Source: an uncultured bacterium (GTDB lineage Bacteria > Hydrothermota > Tepidihabitantia > SM23-42). From it: a stretch of DNA of 64,000 bases. This document shows, in pieces, positions 8,645-64,000 of this stretch. Position numbers and translations under genes: made by a program. Location: the NCBI GenBank assembly GCA_964419565.1, contig CAYQPW010000007.1, forward strand, positions 31,398 through 95,397, written 5' to 3'. The first letter of the stretch is position 1; the number at the start of each line of letters is the position of its first letter. The notes under the pieces were generated by a model. It searched no databases. It worked only from the letters and a program-made list of their open reading frames with translations, and was not told the origin of the DNA.

Positions 8645-8753
8645 AAGATGGAAGAGGGGTTTGGGTTTGGATGCTGGAGTGAAGATAGAGGATAGATCAG
8701 TATATATAAACTGGTTATTTAGTATCCAAACCATAACCAAATAACCATTTTGT
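8645..8753. repeat. intercistronic imperfect hairpin element, family 1, copy A
   Basis: Starts right after the stop codon with AAGATGG..GGGGTTTGGGTTTGGATGCTGGA. 3' arm is TATCCAAACCATAACCAAATAACCATTTTG, just before the ribosome-binding site of the next gene. Confidence 0.7.
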
Positions 8754-18570: not shown

Positions 18571-19740
18571 ATGATGCATATCGAGTCAAAAATAGTGCAT
18601 GGTGGTCAGCATCCTGATAAGGAGACTGGTGCCCTCGCACCACCGATCTATCAGACATCGACTTTTGCATTCCGTGATGCTGATCATGGCGCACGGCTTT
18701 TTAAGCAGGAAGAAACAGGTTATATCTATACAAGGCTTAGTAATCCGACCATCGATCTGCTTGCCAAAAAGGTCGCTTTACTGGAATCTACTGAGGCCGG
18801 GGTCGTATTTGCATCGGGCCTTGCGGCGATTTTCAATTTAGTAGTGACGCTCTCAAAAGCAGGTGAACATATCGTTTCTGACGATACTATCTATGGCGGA
18901 ACTTACGCACTGTGCAAGAATATTCTTCCCAACTTAGGTATTGAAGTAACGTTCTGCGATACTGCGGATGCTGATCAGCTGAGATCTGCGATACGCGATA
19001 ACACAAGATTAGTATTCACAGAAACACCAGCAAACCCGACACTGAAAATCATTGATATCGCCAAATGCGCAGAAGTGACACACGCTAAGAAAATTCCTCT
19101 GTGTGTTGACAATACTTTTGCAACACCCTATCTTCAGAGACCAGTAGAACTCGGCGCTGATATTGTTGTTCACTCAGCGACAAAGTACTTTGGTGGTCAT
19201 GGTGATATTATCGGCGGCATTGTCGTTGGAAAAAAGGATTTTATCCATGGACTCTGGGAGAATGCCAAAGAGATAGGAGCATGCAATTCGCCATTCAATG
19301 CGTGGCTCGTATTACGCGGTCTTAAAACTCTGGCAGTAAGGATGGACCGCCACTGCATGAATGCGATGAAAATCGCAGAATATCTTAATAAACATGACAG
19401 AGTTGAGAAAGTATATTATCCAGGGCTTTTATCGCACCCGGGGCATGAACTCGCCAAGAAACAGATGAGTGGCTTTGGCGGCATGGTCGGATTTGATGTG
19501 AAAGGTGGCAAAGAAGCAGGTAAGGTAATAATGAATTCTGTTAGATTATGTATCCTTGCGGTAAGTCTTGGTGATGCTGATACCCTCATCGAGCACCCTG
19601 CCTCAATGACGCATTCGACTTATTCTGACGGAGAATTACGTGATTGCGGGATCAATCCTGGCTATGTAAGATTATCAGTGGGTCTTGAACACGCTGATGA
19701 TATAATCGCTGATCTTGACCAGGCTCTTAGTAAGTTATAG
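18571..19740 (+). CDS. methionine gamma-lyase / Cys-Met-metabolism PLP enzyme
   Basis: HSATKYFGGHGD PLP-lysine motif; YTRLSNPT and DNTFATPYLQRP segments; 389 aa. Confidence 0.75.
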   Translation: MMHIESKIVHGGQHPDKETGALAPPIYQTSTFAFRDADHGARLFKQEETGYIYTRLSNPTIDLLAKKVALLESTEAGVVFASGLAAIFNLVVTLSKAGEHIVSDDTIYGGTYALCKNILPNLGIEVTFCDTADADQLRSAIRDNTRLVFTETPANPTLKIIDIAKCAEVTHAKKIPLCVDNTFATPYLQRPVELGADIVVHSATKYFGGHGDIIGGIVVGKKDFIHGLWENAKEIGACNSPFNAWLVLRGLKTLAVRMDRHCMNAMKIAEYLNKHDRVEKVYYPGLLSHPGHELAKKQMSGFGGMVGFDVKGGKEAGKVIMNSVRLCILAVSLGDADTLIEHPASMTHSTYSDGELRDCGINPGYVRLSVGLEHADDIIADLDQALSKL

Positions 19741-19804
19741 AAGATGGGTTGGGGTTTGGAAACTAGAAATCCCGCATCCTAACCCTGACCAAATAACGAT
19801 TTTG
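19741..19804. repeat. intercistronic imperfect hairpin element, family 1, copy B
   Basis: AAGATGGGTTGGGGTTTGGA ... TCCTAACCCTGACCAAATAACGATTTTG. Same position relative to the upstream stop and downstream AAGGAGG. Confidence 0.7.
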
Positions 19805-19817
19805 TCAAGGAGGTTTG

Positions 19818-20874: not shown

Positions 20875-22020
20875 GTGAGAGAAGTAGTTGCTATTGGTTG
20901 TGGAATGACAAAATTCGGTGAACTCTGGACCATGTCATTGAGGGATATTTTTGTCGATGCGGCACTGAAGGCTATCAAGGATGCGGGTGTTGATCATATA
21001 GATTCAATGTATGTCGGTGCGATGACCCCAGGACTTTTTGTCGGCCAAGAACATATCGGTGCCTTAATGGCTGATTATCTCGGCGTCGCGCCGGTTCCCG
21101 CAGTGCGTGTCGAGTCAGCCTGTTGCTCAGGTGGTATGGCACTGAGACTTGGATTTTTTGAAATCTCTTCAGGATATAGTGATATTGTTTTGGTCGGCGG
21201 GGTTGAGAAAATGAACGATGGTGCTGACGCCACTTATGCACTTGCTACGGCAGCAGATCAGGAGTATGAGGTTTATCAGGGCGTAACCTTTCCCGGACTG
21301 TATGCACTGATCGCACGGGCTCATATGCATCGCTACGGGACAACACGAAAACAGCTGGCTGCGGTTTCAGTTAAGAATCATCGAAACGGTGCCATGAATC
21401 CTAATGCACAATTTCCACAGGAGGTGACCATTGAACAGGTGATCAATGCAACGCTCGTCGCTGATCCGCTTACTGTGCTTGATAGTTCACCAGTATCTGA
21501 TGGTGCAGCTTGTGTTATACTCGCATCGGCTGACCTTGCCAAGAAAATGGGAGTAAGACCGGTCAAGATAATCGGTTCAGGGGCAGCTACAGATACTTTC
21601 GCTCTGCACGACCGTGAAGATATCACGACCCTCAAAGCGGTTGAATTATCTGGTGAAGCAGCTTATAAAATGGCTGGCGTAAAACCATCAGATATTGATT
21701 TAGCCGAGGTTCATGATTGTTTTTCGATCGCAGAAATATGTATTATTGAAGAATTAGGATTCACGGAAAAAGGCAAAGGCGGACCATTTACTGAACAGGG
21801 AAATACAGCATTGAATGGAAAGATTCCGGTCAATACATCGGGTGGTCTGAAATCCAAAGGACATCCGGTTGGAGCAACGGGTATCGCGCAGGTCGTTGAA
21901 GTCGTTGAACAGCTGCAGGGAAAAGCTGGTAAACGTCAGGTGAAGAATCCTCAAATCGGCTTAACTCAGAATATGGGTGGTTCAGGTGCTTCATCAGTCG
22001 TTCATATTTTTAAAATATAA
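20875..22020 (+). CDS. acetyl-CoA acetyltransferase, archaeal/SCP-x-type thiolase
   Basis: [10 protein letters not shown] (active Cys), EVHDCFS and [17 protein letters not shown] motifs. GTG start after GGAGG. Confidence 0.8.
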
Positions 22021-22117
22021 AAGAAGGGTTTGATTTGGATGCTGGAAAAAGCAAAATCGAGGTTTTAATATAGATGTTTGAAGTCCAGCTTCCTAACCAT
22101 GACCCAATAACCATTTG
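22021..22117. repeat. intercistronic imperfect hairpin element, family 1, copy C
   Basis: AAGAAGGGTTTGATTTGGATGCTGGA ... TCCAGCTTCCTAACCATGACCCAATAACCATTTG. GCTGGA and TCCAGC are perfectly complementary. Confidence 0.7.
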
Positions 22118-22130
22118 ATAAGGAGGTCAC

Positions 22131-31290: not shown

Positions 31291-31316
31291 GAAAAGATAA
31301 TAAGGATATGGATGAT

Positions 31317-31378
31317 AGGATTGGGTTTGGACGTTGGATTTTTTCCCGTTTCTTTACTAAAACCCAATAATAATCTTG
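31317..31378. repeat. intercistronic hairpin element, family 1, divergent copy D
   Basis: GGATTGGGTTTGGACGTTGGA ... CTAAAACCCAATAATAATCTTG, ending just before AAAGGAG and the ATG at 31392. Confidence 0.5.
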
Positions 31379-31391
31379 CAAAGGAGTTTTT

Positions 31392-44624: not shown

Positions 44625-46208
44625 TTAACTGTCCAATATCTTGTTTACTTCTTCCTTGTCAACATCCATGACATAGGGGATACCCGAAATCTTGGCCGCT
44701 TCCTTGGTGATCGATGCGATGTCATCACGGGTGATGTGTTCGAGCGCGAATTTTCGGTTTCCAGTCATTAATTGCTTGAGCCCCTGGGCAAGCCGTTCAA
44801 TATATGTATATACACCCAAGGCGCCGGTTGGTACCTGGTCAAAATCTTTACCCAGTTCTTTGCGTAATTTCGGTGCAGTCACGAATATCTCTTCTTTTCT
44901 ATTCCCAAAACGCTCGACAAATACGGGTACTTCTGCTTCGTTTATCTTACGACCAATGGTTTTCCCGACCATCGCGGCACATAACGGAGCCCGGGCCATA
45001 CCCACGAGCTTTGTATAAGGTGCACCGAGCGCCAGGGCTTTAAATATCTGGTCTTCGAATGCGATACCGCCGGCAAATGCCAGGTCTGCTACATACTTGC
45101 CTTTCTTTGCCAAGCGGTGTGTATACTCATAGGTAAGCGAATGGATCTCGACCGGCGGTATACCCCATTCATTCATCATGCGCCATGGACTCATGCCCGT
45201 ACCGCCGCCGGCACCGTCAACAGTCAATAGATCGATCTTAGCTTCCGAAGCGAATTTTACAGCTCGTGCCAGATCAGCCGGACGGTAAGCACCAGTTTTT
45301 AGGAAGACATATTTTGCACCTGCTTGACGGAGTTCCTCGACTCTCTTGCAGAAAGATTCCAGCTCGACCATACCGATCCTAGAATGTCTTTCAAATTCAG
45401 AAAAGGCTCTTCTATTGAAGGCTTCGATAACATCCGGGTCTAATGGATCGGGTAAAACCACATAACCGCGTTTTCTCAGGGTCTGGGCTTTTTTAAGGTC
45501 CTTTATTTTTACTTCTCCGCCGATATCTTTTGCGCCTTGTCCCCATTTTAATTCAGCGGTTTCGACACCTAATTTCTGTATGGCAAATTCCTGTACACCA
45601 AGCCTCGTATCTTCTACGTTAGCCTGGATAATGATCATACCATAACCATCTTTCTGCCATTTCTTATAGGTTTTTACACGGTATTCCAGGTCTGGTGCTT
45701 TAAGGATCTTCCCGTTCTTAATCTCACTTGTCATATCCATGGCTACGACATTCTCGCCAATTGTAAGCATGCACCCGGCCAGGGCTGTGCCGATCGCGAG
45801 TCCGTCCCAGTTGTTCTTGGCTACATTTGTCGATCCCAGGCCCGGGACAACCATGGGGAACTTCAACTTGATGGATTTATTAGCACCCACTTTCTGGTTC
45901 AAGTTGACATTAGGGAAGATCGCTTTATCCGGATCAGCTTCGATACCGATCGCGCCTACGGCCGTTCCCATGATATTGAAGTGGGAATAATCGACTGGAT
46001 AGTTCTTTTCTGATGCAGCAGTTATGATTCCAAATGGCTGCGGATAGATAACTTCGTGACCGCGGTAAGCAGATTTACCGACTTCGCACATACCGATACA
46101 GCCATCCACACAGGTGACGCACATCCCACTTAAGGGTACTATAGAATCTTCAGTTCTATTTTTTGTTAAGGTTGCAGCTGACGCATTTATTTTTGATAAA
46201 GACGGCAT
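44625..46208 (-). CDS. glutamate synthase domain-2-like FMN/Fe-S oxidoreductase (GltB-related)
   Basis: VDGAGGGTGMSP FMN-domain signature and N-terminal CVTCVDGCIGMC cysteine cluster. ATG at 46208 follows AAAGGAG; the GTG at 46223 in the track overlaps that ribosome-binding site. Confidence 0.8.
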   Translation of the reverse strand: MPSLSKINASAATLTKNRTEDSIVPLSGMCVTCVDGCIGMCEVGKSAYRGHEVIYPQPFGIITAASEKNYPVDYSHFNIMGTAVGAIGIEADPDKAIFPNVNLNQKVGANKSIKLKFPMVVPGLGSTNVAKNNWDGLAIGTALAGCMLTIGENVVAMDMTSEIKNGKILKAPDLEYRVKTYKKWQKDGYGMIIIQANVEDTRLGVQEFAIQKLGVETAELKWGQGAKDIGGEVKIKDLKKAQTLRKRGYVVLPDPLDPDVIEAFNRRAFSEFERHSRIGMVELESFCKRVEELRQAGAKYVFLKTGAYRPADLARAVKFASEAKIDLLTVDGAGGGTGMSPWRMMNEWGIPPVEIHSLTYEYTHRLAKKGKYVADLAFAGGIAFEDQIFKALALGAPYTKLVGMARAPLCAAMVGKTIGRKINEAEVPVFVERFGNRKEEIFVTAPKLRKELGKDFDQVPTGALGVYTYIERLAQGLKQLMTGNRKFALEHITRDDIASITKEAAKISGIPYVMDVDKEEVNKILDS

Positions 46209-46251
46209 TTTTTCTCCTTTCACTGTAAAAGTTTTTTGGCGAATGGTAATA

Positions 46252-46273
46252 GGTTACGATGCCCGTTGTACGT
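46252..46273. repeat. left arm of inverted repeat flanking the four-helix-bundle ORF
   Basis: GGTTACGATGCCCGTTGTACGT. Its core ACGATGCCCGTT is complementary in 11 of 12 nt to AACGGGCTTCGT at 46720-46731. Confidence 0.65.
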
Positions 46274-46286
46274 ACAGTCCTGACGA

Positions 46287-46697
46287 TCACGAACCATTTT
46301 TATCATCCTGCCTAAACTGGCGCCATGCCGATAATAGATTATAAAGCTGGCGTCCAGATTTATCATAGACATCTATTAAATTTTCACAAAGCGAGGTATC
46401 TACAAGATGACCATAGATATCTCTTGTTTGACATATGCTTACAACTGTTTCATTACATTCAGCCATTGCATCGTCCAAATACTTGCGAAATCCAGACTTC
46501 TGATGCCTTTTAGCATAACCTTCAGCAATAAGGCGGGGGATAGCTTTTGAAGATCGGCTCAGTTGACTTACCAGATCATATTTCTCGTTCTTTAGCAATT
46601 GGGGGATCAGTTTTTTCATTACTTCTATACAGGCAGTGTATGTGTTTCGATACACCTCAAGGTCTTGAAAACTGGTTATTCGTTTTCTATTCTTCAT
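46287..46697 (-). CDS. four-helix-bundle protein (23S rRNA intervening-sequence protein / Avd family)
   Basis: 136 aa. FQDLEVY...QLSRSSKAIPRLIAEGYAKR is the hallmark of this family. Confidence 0.8.
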   Translation of the reverse strand: MKNRKRITSFQDLEVYRNTYTACIEVMKKLIPQLLKNEKYDLVSQLSRSSKAIPRLIAEGYAKRHQKSGFRKYLDDAMAECNETVVSICQTRDIYGHLVDTSLCENLIDVYDKSGRQLYNLLSAWRQFRQDDKNGS

Positions 46698-46710
46698 ACG
46701 TATCCCTTTG

Positions 46711-46748
46711 ACGACGAACGAAACGGGCTTCGTTGCCCTTGCCGATAC
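46711..46748. repeat. right arm of inverted repeat flanking the four-helix-bundle ORF
   Basis: ACGACGAACGAAACGGGCTTCGTTGCCCTTGCCGATAC. Contains a local AACGAA/TTCGTT hairpin and shares the CGTTGCCCTTGCCG motif with 49342-49356. Confidence 0.65.
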
Positions 46749-46751
46749 ACA

Positions 46752-47450
46752 TCATTTTTTACTTTTCCGTTGATCTGGCCTGCCTTCGCAAGTGCCGCAG
46801 TCACCGGTCGTTCCCATCCAGCATTGATAGTCATCGTGTGTTTCAATGCAGGTTGGTTCGAGTGAAAGACAGCCACTGCACAGGTCAGTCGTTGCATCTG
46901 GACCCTGACATCGTAACTGACAAGCCGGGCAGATATAGATGCAACCACCACACAGGCGACATGTTTCTGATCTTATGTCAAAAGGGGTGGTGATTTTCTT
47001 TTTATAACCCCGTTCAACGAAACCGATCGCACCTGCTTGCATCTGCTCTTTGCACATCCTGACACATTTTCCACACAGAATACAATCTTCATGTCGTACA
47101 GGTAGTCTTACCTTGGTGACGCTAAATTTTGATGCCAGGTCCTGGATCGTCTTTGATGAAGGGCAGATCGCAACGAGCATTTCGATCATCATCTTGCGCG
47201 CCTTTATTACTCTTTTCGTATTTGTGCGTACGACAAGTCCATCCTCGACAGGATAGGTACAAGAACTAACAAGTTTGGCACTGTCGCCTTCACCGATCTC
47301 TACAAGGCATAGCCGACAGCCACCATAAGGTTCTAACCCATCGTCATAACACAGTGTTGGGATTTCAAGACCATAGAACTTGCAAACCTCCAAAACCGTT
47401 GTATAACTATCAGGAACCCGGACATTGAGACCATTTAGTTTTATTGTCAT
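46752..47450 (-). CDS. NuoG/HydA N-terminal-like Fe-S protein (2Fe-2S plus 4Fe-4S), no catalytic domain
   Basis: CYDDGLEPYGGCRLCLVEI..SC 2Fe-2S pattern; CILCGKCVRMC and CRLCGGCIYICP ferredoxin motifs; Cys-rich tail. Ends at 232 aa with no H-cluster motifs. Confidence 0.75.
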   Translation of the reverse strand: MTIKLNGLNVRVPDSYTTVLEVCKFYGLEIPTLCYDDGLEPYGGCRLCLVEIGEGDSAKLVSSCTYPVEDGLVVRTNTKRVIKARKMMIEMLVAICPSSKTIQDLASKFSVTKVRLPVRHEDCILCGKCVRMCKEQMQAGAIGFVERGYKKKITTPFDIRSETCRLCGGCIYICPACQLRCQGPDATTDLCSGCLSLEPTCIETHDDYQCWMGTTGDCGTCEGRPDQRKSKK

Positions 47451-47462
47451 TTTTGCTCCTAT

Positions 47463-49256
47463 TTACTCGACCAGTATGGCTTCGAATCTGCATACTTCTG
47501 CACACGAACCACATTTTGTACATTTCTTTTGATCGATAGTGTGTACTTCTTTTTTCTTGCCTGAAATAGCATTTACGGGGCATACTTTCAAACAGGCCAT
47601 ACAGCCTGTGCAGCGTTCGTCAAGGATAGTATATTTTATTAGTGGTTTGCATACACGAGCCGGGCATTTCTTATCTTTAATATGCGCAATGTATTCGTCT
47701 TTGAAATATCTCATTGTCGACAAGACCGGGTTGGCTGCAGTTTGCCCAAGACCGCACATTGAGGCGTCCTTTGTCGCGATGGCTAGATCTTCAAGCAGCT
47801 CAAGATCAGAAAGCTCGCCTTTGCCCTTAGTTATTCTGTCAAGTATCTGCCACATCATCTGGGTACCCTCACGGCATGAAAGACACTTACCGCACGATTC
47901 GTCTCTTAAGAAATTCATAAAGTATTTGGCAACATCGATCATGCACGTCTCTTCATCCATGACGATCATCCCGCCTGAACCCATCATTGAACCGACTTTT
48001 GTTAGACTTTCATAGTCGATCGGTAGATCAAGGAGATTTTCGGGGATGCAGCCACCAGAGGGACCGCCTGTTTGAACTGCCTTGAAACGCTTGTTATTGG
48101 GGATACCCCCGCCAACATCATAAATGATTTCTTTTACTGTGAGTCCCATTGGTACTTCAACGAGTCCAGTGTTGTTTATTTTACCTACTAGTGAGAATAT
48201 TTTAGTACCCTTGCTACCTTTGGTGCCCATGCCAGCAAACCATTTCGCACCTCTGAGGATTATCTGGGGGACGTTCGCCCAGGTTTCAACATTATTTATG
48301 TTCGTAGGTTTATTGAATAAACCTCTCTTCACTGGATAAGGTGGTCTTTGTTTGGGCACACCGATGCGACCAGAGATCGCAGCTAACAGTGAAGTCTCCT
48401 CACCGGACACAAAAGCACCCGCACCGCGAACAACCTCGATCGTGAAGTTGAAGCCGGTTCCAAGAATATCTTTTCCAAGTAAACCATATTCATTAGCTTG
48501 TTTTATCGCGATATTGAGGCGCTTTAAGGCCAAAGGATATTCAGTACGAACATATATGAATCCTTTTTGTGCACCGATGGCTTTTGCACCGATCGTCATA
48601 CCTTCAAGTACAGCATGGGGGTCTGCTTCAAGGATACTCCGGTCCATAAAAGCACCTGGATCGCCTTCATCTGCATTGCAAACCAGATATTTCACTGGTT
48701 CCTTTTCTTCTCTGCAAAGCTCCCATTTCCGTCCTGTCGGAAACCCGGCTCCGCCACGACCACGAAGTCCCGAGGTTTTTATCTCATCGATTATTACTTT
48801 TGGTTCCATTCCAGAGAGTGCTTTTTCCAGAGCTTTATAACCGTCAAAGGCGATATATTCTTCAATATCCTCTGGGTCGATGCGACCGCGATTTCTCAAT
48901 ACGATCAATCGTTGGTGTTTGAAAAAACCAATATCACTCATTTTAGGTATCGGTTTTTCTTCCTTCGGCGGGACATACATTAATTTTTTTACGGGTCGCC
49001 CTTTTAAAAAATGTTCTTCAACAAGATGGGGGATATCGCGAACAGAAAGATTTTGATAGAAAATACCTTCGGGTTGTACAACGACTATCGGTCCACGTTC
49101 ACAGAACCCATTACATCCTGTTGATATGACCGCTATTTCTTTTTGCAGCCCTCTTTTTGCGATCTCGGTTTCTAGTGCTTTCTTGATCTCGAAAGACCCT
49201 GCCGCGACACATCCAGTTCCAGCACAGACAAGCAAATGTGTTCGATATTGTTTCAA
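47463..49256 (-). CDS. NuoF/HydB/HndC-like NADH-binding FMN Fe-S subunit
   Basis: N-terminal thioredoxin-like 2Fe-2S (LLVCAGTGC..GCNGFCERGP), GLRGRGGAGFPTG FMN/NADH motif, ESCGKCLSCREG N3 cluster, two C-terminal CxxCxxCxxxCP motifs. TTG start 5 nt after AGGAGG. Confidence 0.9.
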   Translation of the reverse strand: MKQYRTHLLVCAGTGCVAAGSFEIKKALETEIAKRGLQKEIAVISTGCNGFCERGPIVVVQPEGIFYQNLSVRDIPHLVEEHFLKGRPVKKLMYVPPKEEKPIPKMSDIGFFKHQRLIVLRNRGRIDPEDIEEYIAFDGYKALEKALSGMEPKVIIDEIKTSGLRGRGGAGFPTGRKWELCREEKEPVKYLVCNADEGDPGAFMDRSILEADPHAVLEGMTIGAKAIGAQKGFIYVRTEYPLALKRLNIAIKQANEYGLLGKDILGTGFNFTIEVVRGAGAFVSGEETSLLAAISGRIGVPKQRPPYPVKRGLFNKPTNINNVETWANVPQIILRGAKWFAGMGTKGSKGTKIFSLVGKINNTGLVEVPMGLTVKEIIYDVGGGIPNNKRFKAVQTGGPSGGCIPENLLDLPIDYESLTKVGSMMGSGGMIVMDEETCMIDVAKYFMNFLRDESCGKCLSCREGTQMMWQILDRITKGKGELSDLELLEDLAIATKDASMCGLGQTAANPVLSTMRYFKDEYIAHIKDKKCPARVCKPLIKYTILDERCTGCMACLKVCPVNAISGKKKEVHTIDQKKCTKCGSCAEVCRFEAILVE

Positions 49257-49291
49257 CTCAACCTCCTATGAAAAAAACAGGTAAGGGTATT

Positions 49292-49380
49292 GGGCTACGA
49301 TGCCCGTTTCGTAAGATAAGGTGACGTTTATATTGTCTCTACGTTGCCCTTTGCCGTTGAACGATACGGGTTGCGTTACT
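49292..49380. repeat. ORF-less copy of the repeat that flanks the four-helix-bundle gene
   Basis: GGGCTACGATGCCCGTTTCGT ... CTACGTTGCCCTTTGCCGTTGAACGATACGGGTTGCGTTAC. The arms can pair (about 13 bp including G-U). Lies in the 142-nt gap between the hndB-like and nuoF-like genes. Confidence 0.65.
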
Positions 49381-49398
49381 GTTACCTTTACCATTCTG

Positions 49399-49782
49399 TT
49401 AATAGGTTCTCTCACTGCCTACAGCTAAGGCATATTCTTTCACAACATTCCCTTTGAGGACGTGGTCTTCCAGTATCTTCTTCATCTTGGTTGTAGTTAG
49501 ATCGACATATTTCACTGGTGGTTTGCCGCTTATTTCGACGGTAGCCATTGGTTCACGGCTGCACAAACCGGCACATCCCGAGGTGGTGACGATTACGTCC
49601 CTTATTTTTTTCTTGTCGATTTCACTCATCAAGTTGGTGAGAATTTCACGAGCACCGGCAGCAATACCACAAGTCCCCATGTGTACTGTTATCTTGGCTT
49701 TCGCTTTACCTTGTCTTAGATTAGCTGTTCTTCTTACTTTATCCCTTATTTTTTCTAAATCGCCGATTTTCAATTTCTTCAT
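49399..49782 (-). CDS. thioredoxin-like [2Fe-2S] ferredoxin (HndB-like)
   Basis: 127 aa. VHMGTCGIAAGA and TSGCAGLCSREP cysteine pairs. Confidence 0.8.
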   Translation of the reverse strand: MKKLKIGDLEKIRDKVRRTANLRQGKAKAKITVHMGTCGIAAGAREILTNLMSEIDKKKIRDVIVTTSGCAGLCSREPMATVEISGKPPVKYVDLTTTKMKKILEDHVLKGNVVKEYALAVGSERTY

Positions 49783-63748: not shown

Positions 63749-64000
63749 ATGAAAAAGGAAGAACTTAAGAAAAGAACCAAACAATTTGCACTGGATATTA
63801 TAAAATTCGTTGGTACTTTGCCTAATAACCGCATTGTAAGTTTGATTGAACAACAATTAGTAAGATCTGCGACATCGGTTGGTGCTAATTATCGTTCAGC
63901 ATCTGGAGCACAATCCCATGCTCACTTTATCCATAAAATGAATATCGTATTGGAAGAAGCTGATGAATCGCATTACTGGCTTGAGGTTATATTAGCTCTT
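63749..64000 (+). CDS. four-helix-bundle protein (23S rRNA IVS protein / Avd family), 3' end outside window
   Basis: ATG at 63749, open to the window end. FALDIIKF..LP...QLVRSATSVGANYRSA...F..K...EEADESHYWLE is the family hallmark. Confidence 0.8.
   Translation, partial: MKKEELKKRTKQFALDIIKFVGTLPNNRIVSLIEQQLVRSATSVGANYRSASGAQSHAHFIHKMNIVLEEADESHYWLEVILAL

Follow-up and report, generated by a model that had tools for sequence, protein, structure and literature searches.

A segment at about 46241–46747 of a 64,000-nucleotide stretch from an uncultured bacterium (contig CAYQPW010000007.1; the whole stretch is hereafter the window) is probably a gene-plus-arms cassette of the intervening-sequence (IVS) type, accompanied by a copy that lacks an open reading frame (ORF) and subject to turnover at the gene junction it occupies. 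The segment, whose bounds come from comparing the window with a cassette-free relative (L225), lies in an operon with the gene order, on the minus strand, NuoE-like, a sensory-hydrogenase-like block, HndB-like, NuoF-like, iron-sulphur (Fe-S) protein, a 136-amino-acid (aa) ORF and a GltB-like protein (Table 1). The protein family of the 136-aa product, PF05635, was named after ORFs carried in stem-loop intervening sequences of 23S rRNA that RNase III excises. A first-pass annotation of the window had proposed that the same kind of cassette colonised hairpins in an mRNA; the PF05635 ORF within complementary arms, the mRNA operon and the ORF-less copies all held up, whereas colonisation of pre-existing hairpins is mildly disfavoured, as described below.

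The 136-aa protein scored above the cutoffs of both PF05635 (E = 1.6e-15, 57.7 bits, cutoff 33.8) and TIGR02436 (E = 1.8e-13, 50.6 bits, cutoff 24). Its AlphaFold2 model comprises four helices (predicted local distance difference test score, pLDDT, 85) arranged as an up-down four-helix bundle, and together the family scores and the predicted fold confirm the first-pass description of a four-helix-bundle ORF. The best fold matches in the PDB were 2GSC (template modelling, TM, score 0.82; also found by profile comparison at E = 6e-6), 2RLD (0.79) and 4DWL (0.72), the last being a chain of Avd, the pentameric nucleic-acid-binding adaptor of diversity-generating retroelements; a second Avd chain, 8UB7_C, also matched at about 0.72. 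The closest solved relatives are therefore the stand-alone proteins Xcc0516 (2GSC) and BT_0352 (2RLD), with Avd further off. Protein homologues were numerous (2735 matches, of which the best 120 are at least 64% identical), and a scan of one genome per species gave 204 loci, the best 80 at 58–74% identity; over all sets, the homologues across phyla span 58–81%. These loci are spread over more than a dozen phyla, including WOR-3, Omnitrophota, Thermodesulfobacteriota, Planctomycetota, Nitrospirota, Elusimicrobiota, Gammaproteobacteria, Bdellovibrionota, Bacteroidota, Zixibacteria, Margulisiibacteriota, Auribacterota and several phyla of the candidate phyla radiation (CPR). Phyla were interleaved on the protein tree, which points to horizontal transfer, and no members of the subfamily were found in IMG/VR viral contigs, sequenced plasmids or phages. 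Against syntenic orthologues dN was 0.15–0.20, with dS saturated and hence no dN/dS value.

Two further observations concern the family at large. The window holds a second PF05635/TIGR02436 ORF (E = 2e-19; 63749–64000, plus strand, running off the window end), which belongs to the classical subfamily and not to the one with the IPRLIAEGY motif; upstream of it is a perfect 8-bp inverted repeat (63677–63684/63714–63721) unrelated to the cassette arms. At two homologous loci (L088:1305–2144 and L090:2501–3328) the called ORFs yield products of 275–279 aa in which the bundle domain appears to extend into the downstream reading frame, and fusion or read-through may explain this.

The ORF is flanked by arms of about 45 nt each which are conserved and, at the family level, mutually complementary. 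The 5′ arm carries the core ACGAAGCCCGTTTCG at 46733–46719 (arm-profile nhmmer search, E = 7e-10) and, in its inner portion, a Shine-Dalgarno-like AAAGGGA at 46709–46703; the core of the 3′ arm is AACGGGCATCGTA at 46267–46255 (E = 4e-4). Flank sequences quoted at first pass are present as quoted, but the CGTTGCCCTTGCCG module picked out there is an outer repeat unit and not the best register. There are exactly two occurrences of the 13-mer AACGGGCATCGTA in the window, at 46255–46267 and at 49296–49308, the second of them in an ORF-less hairpin that sits in the 142-nt gap between hndB and nuoF. On the coding strand, the 54-nt spacer upstream of the ORF aligns with the 5′ half of this hairpin at 29 of 37 positions, and the downstream spacer with its 3′ half at 22 of 26, in the same order; neither alignment score was reached by any of 2000 dinucleotide shuffles. 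The ORF therefore stands where the hairpin has only a 27-nt loop. The related ORF-less copy reported at first pass is real, and its collinear similarity to the cassette is longer than was reported.

A covariance model built solely from the joined flanks of 31 ORF-bearing cassettes recovered the hndB–nuoF hairpin at 53.8 bits (E about 4e-12) on the minus (operon) strand and at 38.4 bits on the plus strand, and the polarity of its mismatches agrees with the operon strand. The sequence folds as one long imperfect hairpin (−28.5 kcal/mol, z = −2.35). The weight of the observation rests on this homology of the arms, not on the pairing energy of the window's own cassette.

Homologous loci share a common design, in which ...GGTAACGGTAACGAAGCCCGTATCGGTTAATGGTTAAGGTAACGTAA precedes the ATG and ACGTAACC..GACGAAACGGGCATCGTAACCGTTACC begins about 10 nt before the stop codon; the 5′ arm thus reaches the start codon, and the last codons and stop of the ORF lie within the 3′ arm. 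The core can be written as ACGA(A)GCCCGT(A)TCG opposite CGA(A)ACGGGC(A)TCGT, where brackets mark conserved A·A mismatches on the sense strand. A Smith-Waterman test of flank complementarity across 82 loci gave a median z of 2.9, with z above 4 in 32, as against a median of 0 and one case in 151 for shifted-position controls. In an alignment of the 31 joined flanks made with MAFFT from sequence without structure, 86% of cells in a 27-pair model were paired, falling to 22–44% when partners were slid, and RNAalifold independently returned the same core helix. Double-change pairs (12 vs 6.4 in shuffles) and the covariation score (0.124 vs 0.079) were each matched by none of 500 shuffles. The mismatch columns held A·A in 13–18 of the 31 sequences and T·T in 0–4; in an arm-profile alignment of 33 filled cassettes the figures were 16–17 and 2–8. 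An alignment of ORF-less hairpins added little covariation, the search pattern having had fixed cores.

The arm profile detected 33 ORF-filled cassettes and 21 ORF-less hairpins among the loci, several of which contain two or three cassettes. Two such clusters lie within 5 kb, at L035 (173–669 and 2457–2946) and L057 (1035–1544, 2432–2939 and 4989–5119), and include cassettes or hairpins. A minority arrangement was seen at L027, L028, L063 and L092, with a 3′-type arm before the ORF and a complete ORF-less hairpin after it, so that the gene lies between tandem hairpins and not inside one. Beyond these loci, a metagenome scan found at least 120 stretches with ORF-less hairpins bearing the exact cores. 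Mismatch polarity followed the strand of the flanking gene in all nine strongly polar ORF-less hairpins near cassettes. Among 83 metagenome hairpins it followed the upstream gene in 18 cases vs 5, a moderate bias that comes from strongly polar copies only and from crude ORF calling.

Variant arm classes, for example AAGAGGCCGGTGTGG / CCAGACTGGCATCTT, retain both the pairing and the positions of the mismatches. On the protein tree the arm classes form clusters (20 changes vs 32.8 with shuffled labels, a value reached in 0 of 200 shuffles), hence arms and gene travel together, both in inheritance and in exchange between phyla. Between syntenic orthologues the arm cores are retained despite saturated synonymous sites, which indicates that the unit is conserved under selection. 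As arm class tracks the protein and the ORF ends inside the 3′ arm, arms and ORF look like one unit. ORF-less copies could equally well be deletion derivatives of such a unit as hairpins that an ORF later entered, and the sequence pattern mildly favours the former.

The genomic setting of the cassettes was also consistent across loci. The upstream neighbour was co-directional in 73 of 76 loci (median gap 82 nt) and both neighbours in 62 of 78, and the neighbours themselves belong to unrelated housekeeping families. No rRNA gene was found within 2.5 kb of the cassette in 40 loci scanned, nor a tRNA gene beside it in 60; together with the sense orientation, this indicates that the subfamily lives in mRNA operons. 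No promoter-like excess was seen in the window, and the subfamily apparently relies on host transcription. No reverse transcriptase, transposase, RAYT (repetitive extragenic palindrome-associated tyrosine transposase), integrase or nuclease family recurred within 2.5 kb of 78 loci. Searches against Rfam gave no family in the window, none at its two arm sites even at E up to 5, and none in 40 homologous loci.

Turnover was examined at the Fe-S/GltB junction in a sample drawn from the many GltB-like homologues 80–95% identical to that of the window, which served as reference. The class A cassette of the window is also present in L007 (GltB identity 90%), L011 (83%) and L012 (90%). L101 (95%) and L104 (80%) instead hold a class B cassette, that is, another PF05635 gene of 126–127 aa, 27% identical to class A and with arms of CAGATNN heptamers. 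An ORF-less class-B hairpin occupies the junction in L226 (89%), and a plain spacer is found in L225 (94%), L102 (89%) and L103 (85%). On the GltB tree these four states require six changes among the 10 taxa, no fewer than shuffled labels, and three supported sister pairs differ: the window (A) and L101 (B), L007 (A) and L226 (empty B; support 100/100), and L011 (A) and L104 (B). L007 and L226 have one mismatch in about 130 nt, running up to the last Fe-S codons and resuming from the GltB Shine-Dalgarno; everything between differs, with a class A cassette in L007 and an ORF-less heptamer hairpin in L226. The hndB–nuoF gap is variable as well. The window has a class-A hairpin there and L101 one of class B (−41.5 kcal/mol), whereas in L104 and L226 the genes are 10 nt apart or overlap. 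The junction occupant has thus changed repeatedly among close relatives, and the unit is lost or replaced quickly at this site.

Contigs about 85% identical to the window, from two metagenome runs, have the 3′ part of the Fe-S gene joined to the 5′ part of the GltB-like gene (46127/46894). These are probably relatives with another junction occupant, the intervening sequence not being in the record.

Several results weigh against reading the segment as an IVS-type cassette whose arms work in RNA. The first-pass claim of a stem around the ORF stands in part, since the flanks pair around it in both the minimum-free-energy and centroid structures of 46240–46760, but this pairing is only marginally above shuffles: the arm duplex reached −33.4 kcal/mol (shuffles −25.5 ± 4.2, 16 of 300 as good), Smith-Waterman complementarity of the window's flanks gave z = 1.1, and the whole 521 nt folded no better than shuffles (z = −0.07). 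With its pairing so marginal, the window's copy may be decaying. Paired columns across the family contained 30 G-U and 36 A-C combinations, hence no G-U excess. Such an excess would be expected from a purely RNA-level constraint, and the arms could instead function as inverted repeats in DNA. No target-site duplication was found at the boundaries defined against L225 and L226, and no recombinase or junction/excision read was seen. The ORF is syntenic in four relatives at 73–77% identity, which fits a long-resident, possibly domesticated gene. Furthermore, the orientation bias could partly be co-orientation with replication, and the occupant could have turned over by homologous recombination through the conserved flanking genes and not by transposition. 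The NuoF-like proteins of the window and L101 are 74% identical where the neighbouring genes are at 90–95%; the gene was apparently exchanged between the two sisters in a recombination tract, and recombination through conserved flanks could accordingly explain some of the turnover. Transcript cleavage, translation control and binding of the arms by the protein are, finally, steps that we infer.

The G-U result bears most directly on a different account, in which the arms are terminal inverted repeats acting in DNA, single-stranded or as a cruciform, and cassettes and ORF-less copies are non-autonomous elements resembling miniature inverted-repeat transposable elements (MITEs) or repetitive extragenic palindromes and bacterial interspersed mosaic elements (REP/BIME). 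The recombinase would be encoded elsewhere, the PF05635 protein would be cargo or an accessory, and the RNA stem a by-product. The arms do have the form of the terminal inverted repeats of a transposon or MITE, their sequence is conserved across phyla beyond what pairing demands, the left arm differs from the right at the same positions throughout, in the manner of transposon ends, ORF-less copies are abundant and turnover at one junction is fast. We nevertheless regard this as a real possibility that is unlikely to be the right one, because no transposase, RAYT or integrase family recurs near the 78 loci, target-site duplications are not seen, and a preference of 73 loci to 3 for sense orientation behind a co-directional gene would not be expected if DNA transposition were the whole explanation. 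The synteny in four relatives, a Shine-Dalgarno without a promoter of its own and the purifying selection on the ORF would also suit an ordinary, vertically inherited accessory gene of the operon, with the hairpins as intercistronic elements of mRNA stability or translational coupling, nothing mobile and only a superficial likeness to IVSs. Such a gene is improbable here, given that protein and arms recur across more than a dozen phyla in unrelated operons, that sister genomes hold the 27%-identical gene with other arms, an ORF-less hairpin or nothing, and that the GltB tree groups junction states no better than shuffled labels.

Since PF05635 includes Avd (PMC10053308) and the model matches both Avd chains, the ORF might be the Avd gene of a diversity-generating retroelement left behind once the reverse transcriptase and template repeat (TR) had been lost. 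Yet 2GSC and 2RLD are closer than Avd, no reverse-transcriptase-like cluster was present among neighbours of the 78 loci or genes along some 18 kb of same-sequence contigs, and a direct-repeat scan gave no pair resembling template and variable repeats (TR/VR) near the gene, which makes a remnant very improbable; an intact retroelement was rejected on the lack of a reverse transcriptase and of TR/VR repeats beside the gene. Chance, or low-complexity intergenic composition, as the source of the likeness between the two sites draws on the window's stem, which taken alone is reached by 5–19% of shuffles, but is a negligible prospect in view of the flank alignments that none of 2000 shuffles reached, the covariance-model match and the recurrence of the arms in dozens of independent loci. 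An integron gene cassette was considered and discarded, as the ORF lies inside the hairpin and not before it, the cassettes are single in ordinary operons and no integrase-like cluster occurs among the neighbours. The segment has the enclosing complementary termini of an rRNA IVS, strongly at the family level and marginally in this copy, but its host is an mRNA operon and not a 23S or 16S rRNA helix.

For the cassette reading, we infer that the arms act in the transcript from the orientation bias, the polarity of the mismatches, the enclosure of Shine-Dalgarno and stop codon, and the rRNA precedent. Apparently lacking a promoter of its own, the cassette would be transcribed within the operon mRNA, where pairing of the arms would give a long, imperfect stem, its purine-purine mismatches fixed, that encloses the ORF together with its Shine-Dalgarno and stop codon. 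Translation of the ORF would then be limited to the time before the 3′ arm is synthesised, and the stem could be cut by a double-strand-specific RNase such as RNase III, which would uncouple the GltB-like cistron from those upstream. The protein would most likely bind its own arms, as expected of a relative of the RNA-binding Avd. Taken alone, these RNA-level steps are tentative, and we would hesitate to rely on them.

A bolder and rather unlikely extension is that PF05635 proteins, together with their arms, make up a mobile system that is complete in itself and has no transposase, with each subfamily recognising its own arm class. The cognate arms would be the ACGAAGCCCGTATCG core with fixed A·A mismatches here and CAGAT heptamers in the class-B relatives. 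At transcribed gene junctions and in rRNA helices, the protein would help hairpins with such arms to be copied, exchanged or retained. It might do so via an RNA intermediate by analogy with Avd and its reverse transcriptase, and the ORF-less hairpins would be non-autonomous dependants, much as REPINs (REP doublets forming hairpins) are of RAYTs.

Table 1 Cassette, hairpins and host genes located in the window
Feature	Position	Strand	Details
Four-helix-bundle ORF	46287..46697	minus	136 aa; PF05635/TIGR02436 subfamily with invariant IPRLIAEGY and ECNET motifs
5′ arm of cassette	46698..46747	minus	Left boundary by comparison with cassette-free L225
3′ arm of cassette	46241..46286	minus	Right boundary approximate (against L225)
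ORF-less hairpin, arm class of the cassette	49271..49396	minus	hndB–nuoF gap; arms 49380–49356 and 49312–49292; 27-nt loop
Divergent ORF-less hairpin (GGGTTTGGGTTTGGATGCTGGA ... TCCAAACCATAACC)	8648..8753	plus	22.9 bits, E about 8e-4
Second divergent ORF-less hairpin, same class as 8648	19737..19805	plus	20.1 bits, E about 4e-3
Third divergent ORF-less hairpin, same class as 8648	22012..22120	not assigned by model	17.4 and 15.7 bits
HndB-like 2Fe-2S protein	49399–49782	minus	
NuoF-like gene	47463..49256	minus	Between ORF-less hairpin and cassette
2Fe-2S/4Fe-4S protein	46752..47450	minus	Upstream host gene; 232 aa
GltB-like FMN protein	44625..46208	minus	Downstream host gene; 527 aa from ATG 46208

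In addition to the two sites of the cassette's own arm class, the window contains three or four divergent hairpins (Table 1). The fourth, an intercistronic hairpin at 31308–31379, did not score significantly with the covariance model. All four (8648, 19737, 22012 and 31308) share the pattern GGGTTTGG...GGATGCTGGA...TCCAAACC, also seen as GGGTTTGG...CCAAACC, and three of the four score 17–23 bits with the cassette-arm model, which is weak though above background. Similar arms surround the PF05635 gene of another locus (L066), and on this sequence likeness the hairpin at 8648 probably belongs to the cassette-arm superfamily.

Among the host genes, the longest ORF of the GltB-like gene begins at GTG 46223, but the start is most likely ATG 46208, which is preceded by AAAGGAG and was chosen by gene callers on identical contigs. 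This Shine-Dalgarno falls outside the cassette arms. The NuoF-like gene encodes 597 aa in the window and a NuoF-GltD-type fusion of 1026–1045 aa in the closest relatives, the comparison covering L101 (734–3814), L012, L102 and L226. The window sequence recurs on contigs from salt-marsh metagenomes, and its form of the junction is present in DNA contigs of salt-marsh and sediment runs.

The closest known parallel is the rRNA IVS of Coxiella burnetii and Leptospira, where a PF05635 protein is likewise encoded in the loop of a long stem of complementary termini, the ribosome-binding site of the ORF lies in the stem, the arms contain short tandem units, and ORF-less versions and a patchy distribution among relatives also occur. 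In Coxiella the 23S IVS, in helix 45, has a 28-bp stem with heptamer repeats that is cut by RNase III, with GACAGAT repeats upstream of the S23p ORF (PMC4990558), similar to the CAGAT heptamers of class B. IVSs have also been described in CPR 16S and 23S rRNA (bioRxiv 10.1101/2024.02.27.582315). The cassette differs in being hosted by an intercistronic gap of an mRNA operon and, in class A, in that the arms are not only simple heptamers but share a unique 15-nt core, conserved and with fixed A·A mismatches; moreover, excision by RNase III is established for the rRNA elements and only proposed for the cassette. PF05635 genes inside cas operons (Zhang and Ye 2013, PMC3936711) are similar as four-helix-bundle genes wedged into an unrelated operon, although that study describes no arms, ORF-less copies or turnover. 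Avd (4DWL, 8UB7) shares the fold family, but the cassette has no nearby reverse transcriptase or template repeat, the sequence similarity is distant and the fold match is weaker than with 2GSC and 2RLD.

Likeness to REP/BIME elements with their RAYTs and to MITEs lies in the short imperfect palindromes, intergenic and mostly intra-operon, in the ends shared by gene-carrying and gene-less forms, and in the pairing of arm class with protein class. Unlike those systems, the cassette protein is a four-helix bundle without a known catalytic motif, no target duplication was seen, and the gene lies inside one hairpin, not between separate REP units. Heptamer arrays between co-directional genes of Xanthomonas and Nostoc have been read as G-quadruplex repeats (Rehm et al. 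2015, PMC4692102); as far as the consulted part of that paper goes, these are short G-rich tandem units, transcribed and enriched between aligned ORFs, with no link drawn there to PF05635 or to inverted pairing. They may be an arm-only face of the cassette phenomenon.

PF05635 cassettes bracketed by hairpins within mRNA operons did not come up in a search of the literature, which described only the rRNA version. The window contributes a subfamily whose conserved core is not repetitive, filled and ORF-less copies that share arms, an orthologous junction in four states and the negative G-U result. To our knowledge, Avd is the only characterised member of the very large PF05635 family, and we know of no origin story for rRNA intervening sequences in 30 years. 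The gene-in-hairpin design in ordinary operons offers a sharply conserved, and so testable, recognition core. It comes with a natural series in which a single orthologous junction is filled, filled by the other class, occupied by an ORF-less hairpin or naive, between nearly identical flanks. This series makes it possible to test binding of the arms by the protein, RNase III cutting and uncoupling of cistrons, and the mode by which units are exchanged. For annotation, cassettes and ORF-less hairpins are unannotated operon features in many uncultured lineages.

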